DNA of 63,874 nucleotides, the filler included. It is 5 parts of 5 records of this genome, joined end to end, with 100 filler letters (N's around TTAATTAATTAA, not from the genome) between each part and the next. Parts side by side here need not be neighbours in the genome. Positions count along the whole stretch, not along the records: positions 58,705 to 63,874 come from SRR31156797_14767; 4 more parts are not named here. One strand, written 5' to 3'. Positions 6,137-63,874 of the stretch are shown here, piece by piece. Each line of letters begins with the position of its first letter. Position 1 is the first letter of the stretch. A model generated the notes under the pieces. It was not told where the DNA came from. It saw only the letters and a program-made list of their open reading frames with translations, and did no database searches. The position numbers and the translations under genes were made by a program.

Positions 6137-6172
6137 ATGCCCATACATTTCTTTATTTTAGCCATAAAAACG

Positions 6173-6682
6173 ATGCGTTATATTTTCTTATTCATCTTCA
6201 TTGTTACTTTAAGTTTATCGCTTAAAGCGCAGTATTCTTCCTTGTATTTAATTAATCAGGAAAAAGACAAAGTGGTACATATCAGAAAAGGTGGCCTTGT
6301 GGTATTGGAATATCAAGGCTACTTAAACCAAACAGAACTGCATAGCAATTATATTATTGGCATTAATGATAACAGCTTACTGTTGGGCAAACCGGGATTA
6401 TTTAACAAGCCAGACAATGTAAAAGAAATTCGCATAGATGATATCACCGGATTCAGAAAGAAATCGGCAGGGTCGGAGTTATTAAAGACGGCATTAACAG
6501 TAGGTGCAACTTTGGGAACCTATTACGCTATCCGTGAAAACAAAGACAAACTAAATTCTACACAACAACTTGTGTATTCACTTGGTGCAGGATTAGTTAC
6601 CAGTATTTCCCTTAAATTTATTTTTCCCGATACTAAAATTAAGTATAAGTTAAAGGATGGCTGGAAGATTCAGCTTAGGTAA
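6173..6682 (+). CDS. Hypothetical exported/membrane protein
   Basis: Signal peptide from the Met at 6173 (the upstream ATG at 6137 abuts the terminator); two Gly-rich hydrophobic helices near the C-terminus. Confidence 0.65.
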   Translation: MRYIFLFIFIVTLSLSLKAQYSSLYLINQEKDKVVHIRKGGLVVLEYQGYLNQTELHSNYIIGINDNSLLLGKPGLFNKPDNVKEIRIDDITGFRKKSAGSELLKTALTVGATLGTYYAIRENKDKLNSTQQLVYSLGAGLVTSISLKFIFPDTKIKYKLKDGWKIQLR

Positions 6683-6834
6683 GTAACCATACTTTATTAG
6701 TTTTTCATATACAATTTCGACCATTTTTAAATGGTAAACATTAACTTCTTATTAACCAAACAAAAGGTTTTTGATAACTTATCATAAGCTATTTTTGATG
6801 CATATTATTTACAAACATTAAAAATGAATAAACT

Positions 6835-7332
6835 ATGAAAAAGTTGTTTTTAGTATGCATCGTAGCAAGCATTAGTATGATATCTTTTGCTCAATTCAAA
6901 TTAGGCGGAGGAATCACGCTGGGAAACCAAACATCCATTAACCAAAGCATTGGCGCTGGGTTAAATATAAGGGGGGATTATTCTTTTAACAAAATATCCA
7001 TTAGCCCTGGGTTTACATATATCTTCCCTGGCACAGATGGATATAACAGGTATAGTGCTTGGCAAATCAATGCTGATGCGCATTACCATTTTTACAATGC
7101 TGACAAGATTAAGCTGTATGGTTTAGTTGGCTTAAACTTTACCGAAGAAAAAATGAGCTACAATGAAGTTTATTATTATGGTAATAGCGGAACCAAGTCA
7201 AATACCTCAAGTAGTACAGCAACTTCTGGTTTAAATTTGGGCGGAGGAATTCAGTATAAGAAGTATTTTGGTGAGGTAAAATATGATTCCGGGTTTAACC
7301 AACTCGGCGTAACTTTTGGCGTTTACTTTTAA
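6835..7332 (+). CDS. Outer-membrane beta-barrel protein, paralog of 5572..6090
   Basis: Shares AQFKxGGGxTLG, GLNxRGDY, SPGFT, WQxNADAHY, YGLxGLNF, GExKYD; ends GVYF. Confidence 0.8.
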   Translation: MKKLFLVCIVASISMISFAQFKLGGGITLGNQTSINQSIGAGLNIRGDYSFNKISISPGFTYIFPGTDGYNRYSAWQINADAHYHFYNADKIKLYGLVGLNFTEEKMSYNEVYYYGNSGTKSNTSSSTATSGLNLGGGIQYKKYFGEVKYDSGFNQLGVTFGVYF

Positions 7333-7372
7333 ATCTACAAACGAAGCAAACGGCTATTATGCCGTTTCTTCC

Positions 7373-9025
7373 TTATTTATCCAAAGCTAAAAATTTCCCA
7401 TTTAGCACCACTCCGTCCAAACTCATATTTTTAGCCGATTTGATGGCATCTTCATGCGAATGTACTATTGGTTCTCCTCTTTTATTAAATGAGGTATTTA
7501 TAAGGGCTTTAATTTGGTATTTCTCATGTAAGAGCAGAAGCAAAGCATACATAAATGGATTTTGCTCTTTGTTTCTTATGGTTTGAATACGTGCTGTTCC
7601 GTCGATATGTACGGCACCTTCTAATTGTTTGCGCCGATCATACAGAACCGGTAAATCAATCAACATATAATCTGCTAGATGATGAATTTGATCCTGTCCG
7701 GTGAAATATTTAGCATTTTCCTCCAGCATAATAGGTGCTACCGGTCTGTACCATTCCCTGCCTTTATGCTCCATGCTCACTTTTTCAGCAAGTTGTTTAT
7801 TATCGGCTCTGGCAATAATACTTCTGTTTCCTAGTGCTCTTGGGCCTATTTCTCCAAAATCATTACAAATACCAATCACTTTTCCTGCTACAATCTGCTG
7901 CGCAATGCTATCTAATTCCTTGGAATCAATTAGCACTTTTTTTTGTAGCCTCCAATTATTCAGATAAGGAGAATGCTGTGCAATAGTTCCATGTTTTTGC
8001 CATTCAACAAAGGCTGCTGCTCCCAATGAAAGTCCGCTGTCCTCAGGGCAAGGAGGAATTAACACATCCTTAAACATGGCAGAATCCACAATGTCTTTGT
8101 TGGCCACAATATTTAAAGCAGAACCTCCTGTGTAATATAAATACTCAGCACCGGTATGTTGTAGTAATCGATTTAGTTCATTTTTTAATTCCCGAATAAA
8201 AATATGCTGTAAGGTGGCCAACACATCCTGCATAAAGCAGTCTTGCGTACTAAGCTGATTTTCGTTCCAAACAAAATGTTTTTTAATCGATTCAAATACC
8301 TTTGCTTTCGAACCCCAGCAATTGGTAAAATAATCGTTTTTTACAAGCCATTCTTCCATCGATTTGGAATATTGTCCATAAGCAGCCAAACCCATCATTT
8401 TACCTGGAACGGAGTTTTGCTCATTAAACTTTGCCCCAATAATTCCAAAAACCAAAGCATTGGCGTTAAAGAAAGAAGATAAGTATTTTAAGTTCCAATG
8501 ATACTCAAGGCTTGTTAATTTACCATCTTTATACTGCCAGGCAGAAAAATTGGAAAGACTTCCTCCTCCGTCAAAATGTACCAGTAAACTGTTTTCTTTA
8601 AATTGTTGATAAAAAGGCAAACAACTACCAATATGTGCCAACTCATGATTGATGGAGTAGGCACTTCGTTCATGATCCAACCACCAGCATCTTCCATTTT
8701 CTATATGAGGATATAAAACCTCATTTAAAGGTCCTTCATATCGCAATTTACCACAAGAAGAAATCATGGCTCTTCCCACCACATTATCCGGAAATACTAG
8801 ATCGAAATTGTCTTTTAATAACTTTTCATCCTTGAGAACCTGATATAATGAGCGATGTAGTTTATTATCATGCTTAAATCGGCTTAAACGCTCAAATGTA
8901 AGGTGTTTGATCACTTGGCCATTTTCCATCAACGTTATGGCATGATCATGCACAAAATAAGGCGTGTCGCTATCTGAGCGATCCTGTACAGCATAAATCG
9001 CTAAAGTAGGCTTTGAATGATCCAT
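7373..9025 (-). CDS. Carbamoyltransferase (NodU/CmcH/TobZ family)
   Basis: HD..., HELAH, DGGG, GKMMGLAAYG, GGSALN, EIGPRALGNRSI, KGREWYRPVAP, HIDGTARIQT, NTSFN..GEPIV motifs. Confidence 0.9.
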   Translation of the reverse strand: MDHSKPTLAIYAVQDRSDSDTPYFVHDHAITLMENGQVIKHLTFERLSRFKHDNKLHRSLYQVLKDEKLLKDNFDLVFPDNVVGRAMISSCGKLRYEGPLNEVLYPHIENGRCWWLDHERSAYSINHELAHIGSCLPFYQQFKENSLLVHFDGGGSLSNFSAWQYKDGKLTSLEYHWNLKYLSSFFNANALVFGIIGAKFNEQNSVPGKMMGLAAYGQYSKSMEEWLVKNDYFTNCWGSKAKVFESIKKHFVWNENQLSTQDCFMQDVLATLQHIFIRELKNELNRLLQHTGAEYLYYTGGSALNIVANKDIVDSAMFKDVLIPPCPEDSGLSLGAAAFVEWQKHGTIAQHSPYLNNWRLQKKVLIDSKELDSIAQQIVAGKVIGICNDFGEIGPRALGNRSIIARADNKQLAEKVSMEHKGREWYRPVAPIMLEENAKYFTGQDQIHHLADYMLIDLPVLYDRRKQLEGAVHIDGTARIQTIRNKEQNPFMYALLLLLHEKYQIKALINTSFNKRGEPIVHSHEDAIKSAKNMSLDGVVLNGKFLALDK

Positions 9026-10006
9026 TTAAATGAAAATTTGCCCAATTAAAGTAGTGGCGATTAAAAGGATAAAAAGGGTGTTTTTCCAAAGTATCGATCG
9101 AATCGAGTCTAGTAAATGGGCAATAATTATAGCTACCGGTACCATAACTATGGTTAAGAACTGGAAATGTGCTCCGGTTAAAACCATGAAAGCCATCAGG
9201 TAAAGACTACAATAAATAAAAACCTGGTATTGCTTTCGGGTAAATATTTTTTTACTTCCATAAGATCCAATAACCGAAAACAGTCCTATTAAATAGATAA
9301 AAGCAACGGTTAAAAGAACAATCAGTACCAGATTATTATATCCTTTATAAAGATGGAATAATTTGTCAATAGAAAAAGAAAGATAGGTATAATAATCGGC
9401 CATGTTACCCAATGACAAGGCATAACCCCAGAGTAATAACCAAGGTAAAACCAGACCAATTATTGCTGCCAGGAAAGATTTAAAACTAAGCACTCTTAAA
9501 GTTCCCATCACAATTAGGAGCAGTGGGAAAAGTAAAATGACTTTAAAACTGAATAAACTGGAAACTGAAAGCCAGAAAGAAGCTAAAAAGCACTCTTTCA
9601 TTGTTTTGCGGTAATGGTGTGCTTCAAACAAGTATTCGAGGGCCACGATTAAAAAAATAGTAGCCACCCAAACAGGATGAAAAATCTGTACCTGAGATAT
9701 GCTGCCTACCAATAAGATGTATATAAACCCAGGCAGTGCCGTTTGCTGACTTAATAATCCGTATCGGGAATTAAAGCGGGTTAAGCTCAAAGTAATAAAA
9801 ATGGTAGCAATAACACTAAAAAGGAAACCGAGCCAGGCAATGTTGGCTGTAAATGAAAACAGTTTCCATAAAGGCATTGCAGCGTTAAAACTGTCCACAT
9901 CAACACCTGCACCTGATAAAATGGGTTTTAGCCAGAGCAATATAATAAGTAGGAGCATAAAGGTATATGCTCCTATCCTGTTGTTATGTACCAGTTTTAC
10001 TAACAT
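9026..10006 (-). CDS. Polytopic membrane protein (DUF6427-like)
   Basis: About 9-10 TM helices; position downstream of purD as commonly seen in Bacteroidota. Confidence 0.6.
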   Translation of the reverse strand: MLVKLVHNNRIGAYTFMLLLIILLWLKPILSGAGVDVDSFNAAMPLWKLFSFTANIAWLGFLFSVIATIFITLSLTRFNSRYGLLSQQTALPGFIYILLVGSISQVQIFHPVWVATIFLIVALEYLFEAHHYRKTMKECFLASFWLSVSSLFSFKVILLFPLLLIVMGTLRVLSFKSFLAAIIGLVLPWLLLWGYALSLGNMADYYTYLSFSIDKLFHLYKGYNNLVLIVLLTVAFIYLIGLFSVIGSYGSKKIFTRKQYQVFIYCSLYLMAFMVLTGAHFQFLTIVMVPVAIIIAHLLDSIRSILWKNTLFILLIATTLIGQIFI

Positions 10007-29909: not shown

Positions 29910-30009
29910 NNNNNNNNNNNNNNNNNNNNNNNNNNNNNNNNNNNNNNNNNNNNTTAATTAATTAANNNNNNNNNNNNNNNNNNNNNNNNNNNNNNNNNNN
30001 NNNNNNNNN
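29910..30009. other. Artificial contig spacer
   Basis: N-run + TTAATTAATTAA (stops in all frames) + N-run, 100 nt; GC content and gene style change across it. Confidence 0.97.
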
Positions 30010-42263: not shown

Positions 42264-42363
42264 NNNNNNNNNNNNNNNNNNNNNNNNNNNNNNNNNNNNN
42301 NNNNNNNTTAATTAATTAANNNNNNNNNNNNNNNNNNNNNNNNNNNNNNNNNNNNNNNNNNNN
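42264..42363. other. Artificial contig spacer
   Basis: N-run + TTAATTAATTAA + N-run. Confidence 0.97.
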
Positions 42364-49171: not shown

Positions 49172-49271
49172 NNNNNNNNNNNNNNNNNNNNNNNNNNNNN
49201 NNNNNNNNNNNNNNNTTAATTAATTAANNNNNNNNNNNNNNNNNNNNNNNNNNNNNNNNNNNNNNNNNNNN
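49172..49271. other. Artificial contig spacer
   Basis: N-run + TTAATTAATTAA + N-run. Confidence 0.97.
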
Positions 49272-58604: not shown

Positions 58605-58704
58605 NNNNNNNNNNNNNNNNNNNNNNNNNNNNNNNNNNNNNNNNNNNNTTAATTAATTAANNNNNNNNNNNNNNNNNNNNNNNNNNNNNNNNNNNNNNNN
58701 NNNN
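58605..58704. other. Artificial contig spacer
   Basis: N-run + TTAATTAATTAA + N-run. Confidence 0.97.
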
Positions 58705-59342
58705 CAGGCATTCATATCCGCTAGCCACTGTTTCTGCAGGAAATAGGCGTCCCCATCGTTCTCCAGAGCTGCCGTGTCGTCAGGCAGCAGGGCGAAGAAG
58801 TCGTCCGTGTCCAGGTTGGTACTGACGCGCTCACGACGCACGTAGATATCCCAGGACGGCACGGTGGCTTCGTCTACGCTTTCCAGGTTCCACGCTCCTT
58901 GCGGGCCATGAGCGGAATGCCAGCCGTCCAGATGTTGGAGGCCATTCGGGTCGCTGTAGCCACCGGCCTTGCTGTACGTGAAGCTGCATGTGTACAGGAC
59001 CTTATTCGGATCGTCTGGCTTGGCGATATGCTCTTCTGCTTCCATCACTGGCGTCAGGACCAGAAACGCACGGCCGTTGGTTTGCTCCCAGTTGGGCCAG
59101 CCCGGCGTGGTGCCCGCGTTCGTTGGAGGCATGGAGAAAAACCAGAGCTGATTGTCATCTGTCGGGTCCGGGTCGATGGCCCGCTCGGCCGGCTGGTCCC
59201 AGTCGGCTGGACGCCACGTGGGATTGGTGCCAATATGCGTGTGTGCGACCGAGTGGGCCGCCCGGGCGGCAGTCGCCCATAGGGGCAGAACGGCCGCACA
59301 GAACGCCAATCCGAAGATTGGCAAGATGCGTCTTGCTTTCAT
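58705..59342 (-). CDS. Secreted hypothetical protein with His-rich mature N-terminus, 3' truncated
   Basis: SD GAGGGA 8 nt upstream; signal peptide ending ARA; mature start (A)HSVAHTHIG; internal HLDGWHSAHG. Confidence 0.75.
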
Positions 59343-59350
59343 CGAGATTA

Positions 59351-59387
59351 TCCCTCTAACTTCGCGTCAGGGGAAATCCCCTTACGC
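59351..59387 (-). promoter_or_regulatory. Mutually exclusive RNA hairpins overlapping the SD of the 59342 gene
   Basis: Hairpin A GCGU-A-AGGGG-AUUU-CCCCU-G-ACGC (59364-59387); hairpin B UCCCCUGAC-GCGAA-GUUAGAGGGA (59351-59374) covers the SD. Confidence 0.55.
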
Positions 59388-59499
59388 TCGAATGGTCGAT
59401 GTTGGGCATACGGGGCCGGCTTTGCTGTATCGGCGCCAAGCGCGCGCAATGCAACTCAGATCGGCACTTGTTGCCTACGTCGTTGTGTCCAGGGGGGTG

Positions 59500-59796
59500 T
59501 TATGCGGGCGGTGCGCGCGGGTGAAACCGACTGGGCGAAGTCTGGCAAGAGAGGATGCTCGGGCGGGCCGAAACAAGGTGCCCGACCGAATCGATCTCGA
59601 TATCCGCCGGCTCCAGGTCGACCGCGTAGTCTTTCTTGGAGATAGCGAGTTGCTGGCACAGGGAACAATGGGCTCCGTCATGCTCGTCATGCTCGTCGAC
59701 GTGGGCCAGATGCAGATGCAGCGTGACTCCGGAGGTCATCGCCAGGAAGCAGATGGTCCCCAGGGTCAGAAATGCCGTTTGCATACGCCGATTCAT
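59500..59796 (-). CDS. DUF2946-like (CruR/CutF-type) small protein, putative ribosome-arrest leader
   Basis: N-terminal hydrophobic helix, HLHLAHVDEHDEHDGAH, CSLC, C-terminal PRAPPA*. Confidence 0.8.
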   Translation of the reverse strand: MNRRMQTAFLTLGTICFLAMTSGVTLHLHLAHVDEHDEHDGAHCSLCQQLAISKKDYAVDLEPADIEIDSVGHLVSARPSILSCQTSPSRFHPRAPPA

Positions 59797-60239
59797 GCCG
59801 TTTGCCTTTCTTCCGTCTCATGACACGCCGGACAGATGCCTTCAAGCCGGACCTGCTGCCGACTGATAGTGAATCCCTTGTAAGGGCTTTCGGCCATGGG
59901 CATCGAAATGCCTGTCAGACAGTGCGTTTGCCCGCAGTTCAGACACGTGAAATGCGGGTGACATTGGGTTTCGCTGCAGTGGTGGGCTAGTTCGAAATGC
60001 CAGGCCCGCTCGTGCATGAAGGCGCGATGGACCAGGCCCACCTCCACCAGGGATTCAAGCGTTCGATAAATCGTGACCTTGTTCAGATTCCTGCCGGCCA
60101 ATTCTTCGGCGATCTGGTTCTGACGCAGCGGATGGGATGTCTCCATGAGCACCTTCAAGATCGCAATGCGCGCTTCGGTGCAGTACAGATCCGTCTGCTT
60201 GAGCATCCGCCTGACCTTGTCGTCAAGTTCCGCGTTCAT
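59793..60239 (-). CDS. Fur-family metalloregulator (Zur/Fur-like)
   Basis: T.ARIAIL, VTIYRTL..L...GLV, HPHFTCLNCG, GICPAC; start 60239 in ATGA overlap with upstream stop. Confidence 0.9.
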   Translation of the reverse strand: MNAELDDKVRRMLKQTDLYCTEARIAILKVLMETSHPLRQNQIAEELAGRNLNKVTIYRTLESLVEVGLVHRAFMHERAWHFELAHHCSETQCHPHFTCLNCGQTHCLTGISMPMAESPYKGFTISRQQVRLEGICPACHETEERQTA

Positions 60240-61024
60240 GACGAGACCTCTGGCTTGCACGGGTGGTGTGTACACAGCGGTGCGGATTTGACGAAAAGGA
60301 GCGGGAAAACGATATCACTAATGCAACAAGGCAGCCAGACCGCGATGAACAGGACTACGAAGACACCGACGAACATCGTTGGTGTCAACTCTCGATGTGT
60401 GTTCATCAGAACATGGAACGAGGAGGCCCATGTGCTGATCAAGACGTGGCCGGCGTGGGGGAATTTGGTCCGCGGCCAGAACCAGGCGATGATGATGCCC
60501 AGGATTGCCGCTGGGTTGACTACGTACCAGTCCTCGATGAACCCCAGGTGCAATCGTTCCCGAATATTCGCCGCTGGCGCGCCTGATTCAGTCTCGGTGG
60601 CATGCGCCTGCCCCTCATGGTCGTGCCCGTCGGGTTCCAGGGAATGGTCGTGAGCGTCCATTTCGGCTTCGGCGTCGTGATCGTGCATTGCCCCGTGGAT
60701 GGGCACGGCGACGTCGAGAATGGTTTCGCCGAAGAAGGGCAGTACGCAGTCGCTCACCGTGGCGACCCCGATGGCTCCCAGATGCCCGATCACCACGATC
60801 TTGAGCAGGCTGGCATGCTTGTCGTACAGTTTGAACAGCGAGGCCGTGACGATGGCCGAGAGAACCACGTGCGCCGGGTGAAACACCTGAAACAGCCGGT
60901 GGTTGACCTCAGGTCCGGCGTTCCTGAACAGGAGCATACAGACAATTCCGGTGGCAGCCCCGACGAGCGTAAATGGAGCATGGTGCTTGAGTTCCGCAAG
61001 GATGGCGCCGAACCTGTGTTGCAT
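60236..61024 (-). CDS. His-rich polytopic membrane protein, putative metal permease
   Basis: About 6 TM helices; HHAPFT, FHPAHV..S, HAGHV..S..AS, PCCISD; central HDHDAE..HDH..DGHDHE loop. Confidence 0.7.
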   Translation of the reverse strand: MQHRFGAILAELKHHAPFTLVGAATGIVCMLLFRNAGPEVNHRLFQVFHPAHVVLSAIVTASLFKLYDKHASLLKIVVIGHLGAIGVATVSDCVLPFFGETILDVAVPIHGAMHDHDAEAEMDAHDHSLEPDGHDHEGQAHATETESGAPAANIRERLHLGFIEDWYVVNPAAILGIIIAWFWPRTKFPHAGHVLISTWASSFHVLMNTHRELTPTMFVGVFVVLFIAVWLPCCISDIVFPLLFVKSAPLCTHHPCKPEVSS

Positions 61025-61100
61025 TTTCTTGTACTCCCTGAAAAGCGAGTCTATGGCCGTTACATCAACTACGACCCATTATAGGAGCGGGGTGGGGAAA

Positions 61101-61117
61101 ATGCAACTAAGTTGCAT
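61101..61117. promoter_or_regulatory. Perfect palindromic operator, candidate Fur-family box
   Basis: ATGCAACT-A-AGTTGCAT in the AT-rich divergent intergenic region, 77 nt upstream of the permease-Fur operon. Confidence 0.7.
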
Positions 61118-61269
61118 ATTTTTTCTGCGCGGCTTTGTTTTGTAGGCTTTAGATATAACTGGGCGGCGTCAGGACCATATCGCTGGGCCCTGCGCGGTGA
61201 TAAGGGACTGTCCGTCGAAGTCCGCATAAACACGCAATCGGGGGTGTGGTATTTTGAGAAAGACGCATT

Positions 61270-61983
61270 GTGATCTCGACGCTTGATAGAGCAATCAGTG
61301 AGTCTCCGGTCTGGGCTCTGTTTATCGTGTTCTGGATCGGGGCGATCGCATCGTTGAGTTCGTGCACGGTGATTCGCCTACCGATCGTGATGGGCTGCGC
61401 GGGCGGTCCAGGCACCTCAAAGAAACGCGGCGTCGCTCTGACGATCCTCTTTTCTTTGGGCTTGGTCATCAGCTACGTCCTGCTGGGATCGATTACGGCG
61501 TTTACCGGTGGGGTGATCCACAAGGTTCTGGTTCTGAACAAGTACCTCTTCTGGATCCTGGGGATTGCCTTGTTCGGCGCCGGGATATGGATCTCAGGCC
61601 TAACGAGTCTGCGTGCGTCATGCGATCAGTTGCAGGGCATCGGGGACCGCTTGCAGAAGAAAGGGGCGGTACGAACGCTCCTCCTGGGGATCTTCTTTGG
61701 CTTGCTGGAGACCCCGGCTTGCCCCTGCTGTGGCGCCGGGCTCCTCGTCCTGGCGGGGGTCGTGGTGGCCAAGAACCTGTCGTATTTCGGGCTGTTGGTA
61801 TTCGCGAGTTTCGCCTTGGGCCAAAGCGTCCCCGTACTGGCGATTGGTATTGTGACAGGCTTGGTGAAACCCGATTTGATCCGTCGAGTGCGAACACGCG
61901 TGTGTTCGATCGAACAGAAAATGCAGTTGATCGCTGGCAACGTGCTGATGGTCCTCGGCATCTACCTCATTGTTGTCGGTTAA
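61270..61983 (+). CDS. Cytochrome c biogenesis CcdA / DsbD-type transmembrane thiol transporter
   Basis: About 6 TM helices; SLSSCT...LP and TPACPCCG Cys motifs; FSLG, FALG. Confidence 0.75.
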   Translation: MISTLDRAISESPVWALFIVFWIGAIASLSSCTVIRLPIVMGCAGGPGTSKKRGVALTILFSLGLVISYVLLGSITAFTGGVIHKVLVLNKYLFWILGIALFGAGIWISGLTSLRASCDQLQGIGDRLQKKGAVRTLLLGIFFGLLETPACPCCGAGLLVLAGVVVAKNLSYFGLLVFASFALGQSVPVLAIGIVTGLVKPDLIRRVRTRVCSIEQKMQLIAGNVLMVLGIYLIVVG

Positions 61984-61993
61984 CAGGTGTCTT

Positions 61994-62602
61994 ATGGACA
62001 ACGGGCAGATTGTCTACTCGAAGCGTCGCGAGCGTGAGCATGCGGTCAAAGAACTCGTGGCCAAGGGGTCATATAGTGTCATCATCGTCGTGGTGGCCTT
62101 GATCGTGATACGGCCGCTGATGGTCAAGCAACTGCTCAATCGCGCCAGTGCGTATTCCGCCTTTGGGCTGTACGACGAATCCAAGCGCCAATGCGACAAA
62201 GTCCTGTTGCTGGACAGCGACAACAGCCAGGCATGGTACAATCTGGCCCGCATCTACAAGATTCAGGACCATTTCGATCTGGCGTTCGGATCTTACCTGA
62301 AGGCGACCGAGATGGATCCTGGCAACATTCCCGCCCAGTTCGAACTTGGGATGATGTACGTGCGCGACGGCCGACATCAGCAGGCGATTCCACACTTCGA
62401 TCAGGTGCGTCGACACCGCCCGGACTCGACGCCTTCGTCATCAAAGGCGGCCTTTCCCTATCACAAATCGTCTCTGGACATGTTGCTTCTGTGCTACGAG
62501 AAGGCGGGCGATCCTGGCAAGGTGGAATTCACCCGTGAGGAGATGCGGGTCTTTTATCCTCACCACACACCGTCGGGCGGCGGTGCGGCCCAATTGAACT
62601 AA
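61994..62602 (+). CDS. Membrane-anchored TPR protein
   Basis: N-terminal TM helix; TPRs (AWYNLARIY, AQFELGMMY). Confidence 0.8.
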   Translation: MDNGQIVYSKRREREHAVKELVAKGSYSVIIVVVALIVIRPLMVKQLLNRASAYSAFGLYDESKRQCDKVLLLDSDNSQAWYNLARIYKIQDHFDLAFGSYLKATEMDPGNIPAQFELGMMYVRDGRHQQAIPHFDQVRRHRPDSTPSSSKAAFPYHKSSLDMLLLCYEKAGDPGKVEFTREEMRVFYPHHTPSGGGAAQLN

Positions 62603-62891
62603 CGTCTGAGCGAGTGCCTGAGGTTCCGGGCGCGACAGGCACCCACGTCTCCCAACGGCCTCCGGTCACGCTGTGCCGGCGCCCCGCAGTTTCTCTGCGC
62701 GTTCCCCCACGATATCTTGATTCTTCCTGTTTTGCCCGGGAAAGCCGTTGCGTCTGCACCGTTGCCGGATACACTCTGCGTTGGGGTCACGTGACCTGAG
62801 AGGGTCGCAGCCCTCTTGCGGCCGGCAGGACCCTCGTTCACCTGTACGGACGCGATCGGGCAACGAGCGGTTTGGAAAGGACTTCTGGACA

Positions 62892-63869
62892 ATGCAGGTT
62901 CTCACAACACTGTCGGAATTTGGACAGGTTCGCAAAGGCAGTGTGCTGACGATTGGAAACTTCGACGGGGTCCACATGGGGCATCGAGAGATTCTCCAGA
63001 AGGCCCGAAGTTTGGCGCAGGACCGTCACACCGAAATGGTTGTGATGACCTTCGAGCCTCATCCCGTGGCGGTTCTGCACCCGGAAAAGGCGCCGGGCGT
63101 GTTGACGCCGTTGCCTCTGAAGCTACACCTATTGCGCGAATACGCCGACGATTGCATCATCGTTCTGCAGGACAACCAGGAGCTGCTGAGTTTGGTCCCT
63201 GAGGATTTCGTCGACAAGTTTCTGATGGCCAGCATCGCACCGGGGGTAATCGTCGAGGGGGACGACTTCCATTTCGGAGCTCAGCGGGCCGGCGACGTGG
63301 GCACGCTCCGCGAGTTTGGTGCTCAAAAAGGTTTCGACGTGGTGGTGGTACCGCCCAAACAGATCGAATTGCCCACCGGTCAGCTGCTGCGCGTCTCAAG
63401 CACGGTGGTTCGCTATATGCTCGAAGCCGGCCACGTCGCCGAGGCGGCCACCGCGCTGTCACGTCCCTACCGTCTCATGGGACCGATTGTCTCAGGCTGG
63501 GGGCGGGGCCGGAAGCTCGGCTTTCCAACACTGAACATGGGCAAGCCCGAGCAGATCATTCCGGCCGAGGGCGTTTATGTCGGGTCTGTAGAACTGGCAG
63601 AGAGCCATGCGGCCCTCCTCGGGAAGACCGAGCGTTTCCCGGCGGTGTTCAGCATTGGCGAGGCTCGAACCTTTGGCGATCAGTACCCACTGTTGATTGA
63701 GGCTCATCTGCTCGATAGGACCGTGCCGGATATGGAAGGCCATTGGATGGCGATGGACTTCATCCGCCATCTACGTCATCAGCATAAGTTTGGCAGTTCG
63801 GAAGCACTGGTGAAACAAATTGAAAAGGATTGTCAGCAGGCCAGGGGCGTGCTGAAGGAACTCTCGTAA
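62892..63869 (+). CDS. ribF: Bifunctional riboflavin kinase / FAD synthetase
   Basis: IGNFDGVHMGH, TFEPHP, GDDFHFG, VSST.VR, GRKLGFPTLN, IEAH; start at Met 62892. Confidence 0.96.
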   Translation: MQVLTTLSEFGQVRKGSVLTIGNFDGVHMGHREILQKARSLAQDRHTEMVVMTFEPHPVAVLHPEKAPGVLTPLPLKLHLLREYADDCIIVLQDNQELLSLVPEDFVDKFLMASIAPGVIVEGDDFHFGAQRAGDVGTLREFGAQKGFDVVVVPPKQIELPTGQLLRVSSTVVRYMLEAGHVAEAATALSRPYRLMGPIVSGWGRGRKLGFPTLNMGKPEQIIPAEGVYVGSVELAESHAALLGKTERFPAVFSIGEARTFGDQYPLLIEAHLLDRTVPDMEGHWMAMDFIRHLRHQHKFGSSEALVKQIEKDCQQARGVLKELS

Positions 63870-63874
63870 GGAGA

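Follow-up and report, generated by a model that had tools for sequence, protein, structure and literature searches.

Does the small open reading frame at 59796-59500 of the stretch of DNA analysed here (the window, 63,874 nucleotides in all) encode a nascent-chain metal sensor, and if so, for which metal and with what effect on the gene that follows it? The window consists of five pieces joined at N gaps, and only the piece at 58705-63874 is relevant to this question. Runs of N with a short linker lie at 29910-30009, 42264-42363, 49172-49271 and 58605-58704, and GC content changes along the window from about 0.36 to 0.5-0.57; because of these shifts the pieces are probably unrelated contigs. 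Positions 58705-61300 were found uninterrupted and identical on a single contig from run X1, possibly the source of this DNA and hence not independent of the window. The 98-aa reading frame described in the original prediction, which gave no strand, lies on the minus strand, in the following setting:

61270-61983, divergent from the operon: DsbD/CcdA-like membrane protein gene (Pfam)
61101..61117, no strand: perfect palindrome of 17 bp (ATGCAAC-N3-GTTGCAT), a candidate operator for the Fur-family protein
60236..61024, minus: His-rich multi-pass membrane protein, putative metal permease, 262 aa, no named family
59793..60239, minus: Fur-family regulator, 148 aa from ATG (PF01475, 43 bits)
59500..59796, minus: predicted CruR/CutF-like arrest uORF, 98 aa (motifs and homologues)
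59716..59778, minus: hydrophobic export or anchor segment, uORF residues 7-27 (Kyte-Doolittle 1.5)
59656..59718, minus: His-rich stretch plus a candidate metal site, HDxxxCxxC, uORF residues 27-47 (homologue conservation)
59546..59557, minus: uORF pyrimidine stretch, candidate anti-Shine-Dalgarno (anti-SD) of the window copy, complementary to the target ribosome binding site (RBS), chosen post hoc
59506..59517, minus: RAPP arrest motif (R, P and P in 65/65 homologues)
59343..59499, minus: intergenic region of 157 nt between the uORF and the secreted-protein gene
59364-59387, minus: intergenic hairpin within the 157-nt spacer
59351-59357, minus: Shine-Dalgarno-like AGAGGGA within the 157-nt spacer
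58705..59342, minus: secreted His-containing beta-sandwich protein gene, 3' part cut by the gap at 58704

Both ATGA overlaps can be read from the sequence, at 60236-60239 (permease/Fur) and 59793-59796 (Fur/uORF), and the 157-nt spacer to the secreted-protein gene is likewise as originally described. A sigma-70-like promoter and a terminator-like site on the minus strand were sought in this spacer and neither was found; its fold stability is ordinary (z -1.13), and an Rfam scan of 58705-63874 gave no match. A DsbD/CcdA-like gene divergent from the operon also occurs in 23/67 of the related loci discussed below, and in the window the palindrome might control this gene too, as it sits between both starts.

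The uORF ends in HPRAPPA, with RAPP one residue ahead of the stop codon, and its His-rich stretch (residues 27-43) and CSLC (residues 44-47) stand where they had been placed. The export or transmembrane segment fared less well: a hydrophobic N-terminus is present, but it is only moderately so (best 19-residue Kyte-Doolittle mean 1.51 versus a family median of 2.18). Among the 349 stop-to-stop frames of at least 60 aa in the window, the uORF alone carries R[AG]PP within its last 19 residues. An initial search returned 11 homologues among 12 candidates, two of them labelled Phycisphaerales or Phycisphaerae, and CxxC and RAPP are invariant across all 12 sequences of the first alignment. The planctomycete-like genome proposed earlier is supported as a Phycisphaerae-type host. 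The profile of DUF2946 (PF11162), suggested as a check, matches the uORF at E 0.0011, but the 20.2 bits lie below the gathering cut-off of 23.7; 25/50 homologues match at E 0.1, the best at 1.1e-5. The uORF is DUF2946-like but divergent, and by score it falls outside formal PF11162 membership.

To follow the family, 67 genome loci were fetched through the downstream protein family, blind to the presence of a uORF. A uORF homologue lies directly upstream of the downstream-family gene in 64 of them; L017 has only 56 nt upstream, the uORF of L032 is one gene farther away, and none was seen in L055. In the resulting set of 65 uORFs (64 homologues plus the window copy), the C-terminal motif is RAPP in 31, RGPP in 24 and RPPP in 10, the last being extra finds, since the 50 frames that seeded the uORF profile were picked by motif. 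The alignment of homologues that had been proposed as a check thus shows conservation both of RxPP (65/65) and of CxxC (63/65, the second Cys being the variable one), along with synteny. In 60/65 a His stands five positions ahead of the first Cys, and a G-x5-H upstream is kept in 61/65. Exactly 46 residues intervene between CxxC and RxPP (a Cys-to-Arg distance of 47) in 56/65, and 44-47 (45-48) in 64/65, while median pairwise identity is 24% and the linker between the motifs is unconserved in sequence and fixed in length. In the Fur-anchored loci, a set comprising the best 80 of 525 metagenome loci that may overlap the 67-locus set, Cys-to-Arg spacing is 47 in 30/30. The second Cys is replaced by Trp or Phe in L036 (6532-6867) and L063 (3632-4075), where the His residues and RAPP remain; these are natural variants that bear on the ligand set.

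This pattern is that of CruR (Bp2923), the DUF2946/PF11162 prototype (PMC9426467, accessible part), for which arrest has been shown (PMC12992588, accessible part). As described in the available sections of these papers, CruR resembles the uORF in its export signal (a putative one in the uORF), its CxxC, its C-terminal RAPP (with 45 versus 46 intervening residues), its long intergenic region and the uptake genes downstream. In CruR the 45 residues vary by no more than one or two among family members, and regulation weakens when five more are inserted (PMC9426467, same part); the CutF paper, in the part available, argues that such a distance would bring the metal site to SecY on its periplasmic face (PMC9973294). 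With PF11162 matched at E 0.0011 and with RxPP, CxxC and spacing conserved, the claim of a CruR-like arrest uORF stands as a reading of sequence, and that the uORF encodes an arrest peptide is highly probable. A plain metal-binding protein of small size, exported but without a part in regulation, could be argued for from those CutF-like proteins that lack the proline motif (PMC9973294, available part), but is highly improbable here, as RxPP is present in 65/65 with an unconserved, length-fixed linker, and as the reading frame always stands directly before a payload with a long spacer and is lost together with it. Several points would suit a monitor of secretion or thiol redox, in which translocon pulling or a disulfide frees the arrest and no metal is bound: other bacteria use RAPP peptides to monitor Sec export (PMC12992588, in the part available), disulfides have been proposed for CutF (bioRxiv 10.1101/2025.02.05.636593, likewise), the payloads are secreted, and the DsbD-like gene is divergent in the window and in the 23/67 loci already mentioned. 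We nonetheless regard such a monitor as very unlikely, given the conserved His beside CxxC, the retention of His and RAPP in L036 and L063 without the second Cys, and payloads that are genes of metal uptake and not of the sec or dsb systems.

The arrest peptide and the gene that follows it appear to travel together. The 62 loci with full upstream sequence comprise 34 with the order box-permease-Fur-uORF, 6 with box-Fur-uORF, 5 with box-uORF, 15 with the uORF alone, and L032 and L055. The uORF is thus the third gene of its operon in the window and in 34/62 full loci, and not the first as in the CruR class; the coupling behind permease and Fur, correctly read in the window, is inessential on the Fur side, 20/62 full-length loci having no Fur gene ahead of the uORF. 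Among the Fur-anchored loci the uORF is present in 29/68, and none of the 36 listed without it carries the target gene; 32 of those 36 lie next to a gene for an amidase or a phosphomannose isomerase (as read from N-terminal sequence, with Pfam calls on one example of each). Since uORF and payload are lost together, they would form a cassette inserted behind Fur. It is very likely that the uORF controls the next gene. That gene had been singled out as an uncharacterised secreted protein; it is secreted, but it is incomplete in the window and is one of several exchangeable payloads.

Farther afield, a profile search of the phylum matched 36/401 genomes, and 28 of 29 loci examined beyond the complete genome G001 carry RxPP at a distance of 44-48; L095, a false hit of the profile, was set aside. 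Twenty of the 29 were extended, leaving out the false hit, two that precede DUF58 genes and six that are apparently redundant. The two before DUF58 genes (L094 and L103, from two planctomycete genomes) are related RxPP uORFs, and G228 has two such RxPP uORFs about 4 kb apart. Save for one site with two mismatches, no box was found in the 20 extended contexts, which makes a design with two layers of control lineage-specific.

The upper layer would be the Fur-family regulator, which matches PF01475 at 43 bits (cut-off 23.1), the NCBIfam Zur model at 33 versus a cut-off of 167 bits, and the PerR and Fur models likewise below cut-off. Comparisons with plasmid and PDB (solved structure) entries allow no Fur subfamily to be assigned, and 3eyy, which we take to be the Nur structure, is no closer to the regulator than other Fur proteins are, a point against nickel. 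The regulator is probably a local Zur-like repressor. The palindrome at 61101-61117 is the single match in the window, against 0.04 expected, and the core box recurs with at most one mismatch in 54/54 Fur-anchored loci with room for it. ATGCAAC-N3-GTTGCAT is the Desulfovibrio Zur consensus, itself only predicted (PMC545781, available part), and the core fits the box of the nickel regulator Nur, tTGCaa-N5-ttGCAA, as well (PMC2691836, available part); Zur data were sought in the accessible text of PMC4045070 and none were present. In G001 a perfect box occurs only at the uORF operon and none with up to one mismatch at the ZnuA-family gene; a search of five genomes revealed no wider regulon, the near-matches checked preceding no obvious metal genes, and the strict box is present in 3/401 phylum genomes. 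The permease goes closely with the Fur gene and the box, and is found upstream of Fur in 63/63 Fur-anchored loci with room. It matches no Pfam or NCBIfam family above cut-off, and its Atlas clusters are likewise without a Pfam family; with invariant His, Cys-Cys and Asp residues and the motifs HPxH, HxxH and PCCxSD, the family is a candidate new metal transporter. An Atlas link to a 'metallo-mystery pair' cluster (score 0.82) was set aside as a lead only.

Which metal is sensed can be approached through the payloads. The profile of the window payload finds 28 cluster representatives, and its full-length relatives are about 280-310 aa long, ending either in a dockerin-like part plus His tail or in PEP-CTERM; His6, His8, His110, His187 and His189 are invariant in 55 core sequences. 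Of two structural models, the first has a pLDDT of 65 and the second, all-beta, one of 83; fold searches gave no clear structural match (best Z 6.2, second model), which is no proof of a new fold. Five of ten representatives scanned match all3515_fam weakly near their C-termini (18-25 versus 75 bits), NF040463 (ZepA/All3515) gave no hit in 18 close members of the family, and no profile match links the window payload to the choice-of-anchor M protein (probability 3.8). Judging by its context, the window payload would act in zinc scavenging. The family also has damaged or enlarged members: the payload gene of L059 (about 7001-7669) is apparently frameshifted, L055 holds an interrupted tandem copy (6155-6781) just upstream of the intact one, and in L032 a payload-family member (6944-9112) is extended by about 400 His-rich residues with the appearance of repeated beta-strands, in a cluster that also holds ZepA, a prepilin gene and another secreted protein. 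A gene for a prepilin-type N-methylation (DUF1559-like) protein follows the payload in most of the loci L001-L067 and in some comes right behind the uORF, a hint of a pseudopilin reserved for metal-starvation surface proteins.

Other payloads speak more directly. In L032 a ZepA/All3515 family protein follows the uORF directly (175 versus a cut-off of 75 bits); in L114 and L180 the uORF is followed by a prepilin gene and then a choice-of-anchor M protein above cut-off, and in L177 by a porin-like gene, ZnuA and two ABC-3 permeases. ZnuA is present in 16/20 of the chosen phylum contexts, and ZnuA or ABC-3 in 17/20. PF01297 spans Zn, Mn and Fe binders; among eight uORF-linked binding proteins the best NCBIfam model is a zinc model in seven, all below cut-off. 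In the available part of PMC10957091, ZepA is described as mediating the uptake of zinc, and relatives of ZepA proved specific for zinc in a heterologous assay. Because relatives of the uORF precede zinc-scavenging genes, a zinc version of the switch is probable, and we favour zinc as the sensed metal, with some reserve.

Nickel, cobalt or manganese would agree with the Nur-like core of the box and with the His-rich proteins found throughout the locus, and also with the eighth binding protein (L197), narrowly best on a manganese model, and the His-only CutF-like clusters linked to Ni/Co (PMC9973294, in the part available). These metals are unlikely all the same, in view of the zinc specificity of the ZepA relatives, the seven binding proteins best on zinc models and the structural comparison with Nur given above. 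The copper framing of the original prediction is not supported. CxxC and spacing do match the copper prototypes, and an ArsP-type neighbour shows a weak Cu/Zn efflux match (119 versus a cut-off of 300); yet no copper family was found at E 1e-6 among 67 neighbour proteins (65/109 ORFs of the 20 contexts plus two from L177), and the payloads are of zinc-uptake type, so that a copper sensor like CruR and CutF is very improbable.

How would the arrest be passed on to the payload? All pairing and opening figures that follow are predictions on related sequences. The first Pro codon of the motif is CCT in 28/62 loci, versus 7.9 expected from target genes, and therefore gives CCUCC, which is complementary to GGAGG. 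Between SD and footprint the predicted pairing averages 0.50 in native sequences versus 0.21 in synonymous redraws (40/52 loci), and exceeds 0.5 in only 32/62 loci. Duplexes with the RBS of the same locus average -14.0 kcal/mol versus -11.7 for cross pairs (0/10000 permutations); with GC-matched pairs the own RBS is favoured in 40/60 (p 4e-4). The effect, -2.3 at the arrest zone, is close to zero at 67-127 nt upstream; it was seen again in 25 distinct loci (the Fur-anchored set plus the window; p 0.002) and held when the set was thinned by identity to some 23-39 sequences (p no higher than 0.031). Equal 30-nt masks, applied to 52 loci, reduced RBS opening energy by 2.0 kcal/mol when set on the footprint, by 0.35 when set upstream of it and by 0.16 when set downstream. 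They took the place of a simpler measure, accessibility with the whole upstream part masked, which was discarded because its outcome is trivial. The family-wide complementarity of arrest codons and RBS suggests that the stall is the ON state.

The window copy departs from this pattern. A mask on its footprint leaves the RBS opening energy at 16.7 kcal/mol, whereas masking the stretch at 59546..59557 (duplex -10.5 kcal/mol) lowers it from 16.7 to 12.3; acting through this stretch, a post hoc candidate, would need a queued ribosome. L113, the nearest relative of the window copy, pairs weakly (-8.0). Since the arrest zone is C-rich (skew 0.19-0.23, with C over G peaking at the arrest site), Rho remains a rival: the arrest peptide and the zinc logic would be the same, but the output would be Rho-dependent termination as in CruR. 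Such an output accords with the window copy lacking footprint-specific RBS opening and with an intergenic length of 157 nt, near the 162 of cruR, and the CCT bias (28/62) would enrich Rho-binding pyrimidines too. It is rather unlikely even so, as a Rho site does not predict complementarity specific to the own RBS, which holds with GC-matched pairs included, and we lean towards RBS occlusion as the main output. Under either output we infer that the stall is ON; since the payloads are uptake genes, metal most plausibly relieves the stall, and we think relief of the arrest by metal rather likely.

Putting these elements together, we give a probability of about 0.5 to the reading in which the ORF is a cis-acting CruR/CutF-like arrest uORF gating zinc-scavenging surface proteins. 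At low cytoplasmic zinc the Fur-family repressor would leave the palindrome and the operon would be transcribed. The uORF would be exported during its synthesis and, by analogy with CruR toeprints, the ribosome would stall at RAPP, the fixed 46-residue ruler holding HDxxxCxxC where the translocon opens to the periplasm. The stalled or queued ribosome would then cover the pyrimidine stretch that pairs with the RBS, and the payload would be translated, a step computed family-wide and unclean in the window copy. With ample zinc outside, the His/Cys site would bind it, the chain would fold and pull free, and the RBS would close; permease and Fur, being upstream of the gate, would escape gating. 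More tentatively, we propose a portable zinc-sensing uORF whose arrest codons serve as anti-Shine-Dalgarno, set inside a Zur-like operon, such that cytoplasmic zinc gates transcription of the operon and periplasmic zinc translation of the payload, the payloads including an undescribed ZepA-like zinc-binding family.

The class to which this uORF belongs, that of DUF2946-type arrest sensors, is already published, and DUF2946 hits in Planctomycetes have been noted before (PMC9426467, available part). The homologues of cruR head operons, precede copper genes and have Rho as output, as far as the accessible descriptions go; unlike CruR, the uORF comes behind permease and Fur, carries a His-rich site, precedes zinc-type payloads and shows family-wide complementarity to the RBS. 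CutF of Rhodobacter capsulatus has the co-translational export and the proline-rich stall freeing a downstream RBS that are predicted for the uORF (PMC9973294; bioRxiv 10.1101/2025.02.05.636593; available parts of both), but has CxxxC and PPP, a stall induced by metal and a target that detoxifies copper, whereas relief of the stall by metal is predicted for the uORF, and the anti-SD of its family would sit within the arrest codons themselves. Caulobacter CC2720, a DUF2946 gene whose operon is controlled by Zur, parallels the predicted setting of the uORF, but in the accessible part of PMC4176598 it heads the Zur-activated efflux operon czrCBA-zntA and is given as a hypothetical protein, whereas the cargo of the uORF would be for uptake. 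In ZepA/All3515 loci, too, surface proteins that are secreted and contain His are encoded close to a Fur-family gene and an amidase gene (PMC10957091, available part); they differ in that the window payload lies outside NF040463, and the accessible main text of that paper does not mention DUF2946.

The available source table of PMC12992588 has RAPP uORFs before zinc-regulated receptors in at least 9 of 26 'zinc' rows, one annotated DUF2946, and the main text, as accessible, mentions zinc or Zur nowhere; neither a Fur-box-permease architecture nor payload exchange was found in the available parts of that paper. The same table has many actinobacterial RAPP uORFs with the ending LDVLRRSxDRAPP ahead of TraR/DksA C4 zinc-finger genes. 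A literature search whose scope left out most subscription journals found no zinc-sensing arrest peptide. What is new here is the probable zinc-uptake cargo, the internal position under a candidate Fur-family operator, the exchangeable payload and the predicted anti-SD in the arrest codons.

The two characterised DUF2946 sensors considered here answer to copper, and the Phycisphaerae clade offers a direct test of whether this scaffold has been retuned to zinc; it also bears on what sets the sign of the metal response. It offers natural variants (RAPP, RGPP, RPPP and loss of the second Cys) and a design for two-compartment control. By guilt of association, the His-rich permease and the secreted beta-sandwich families become candidate zinc-acquisition parts of the little-studied Phycisphaerae.
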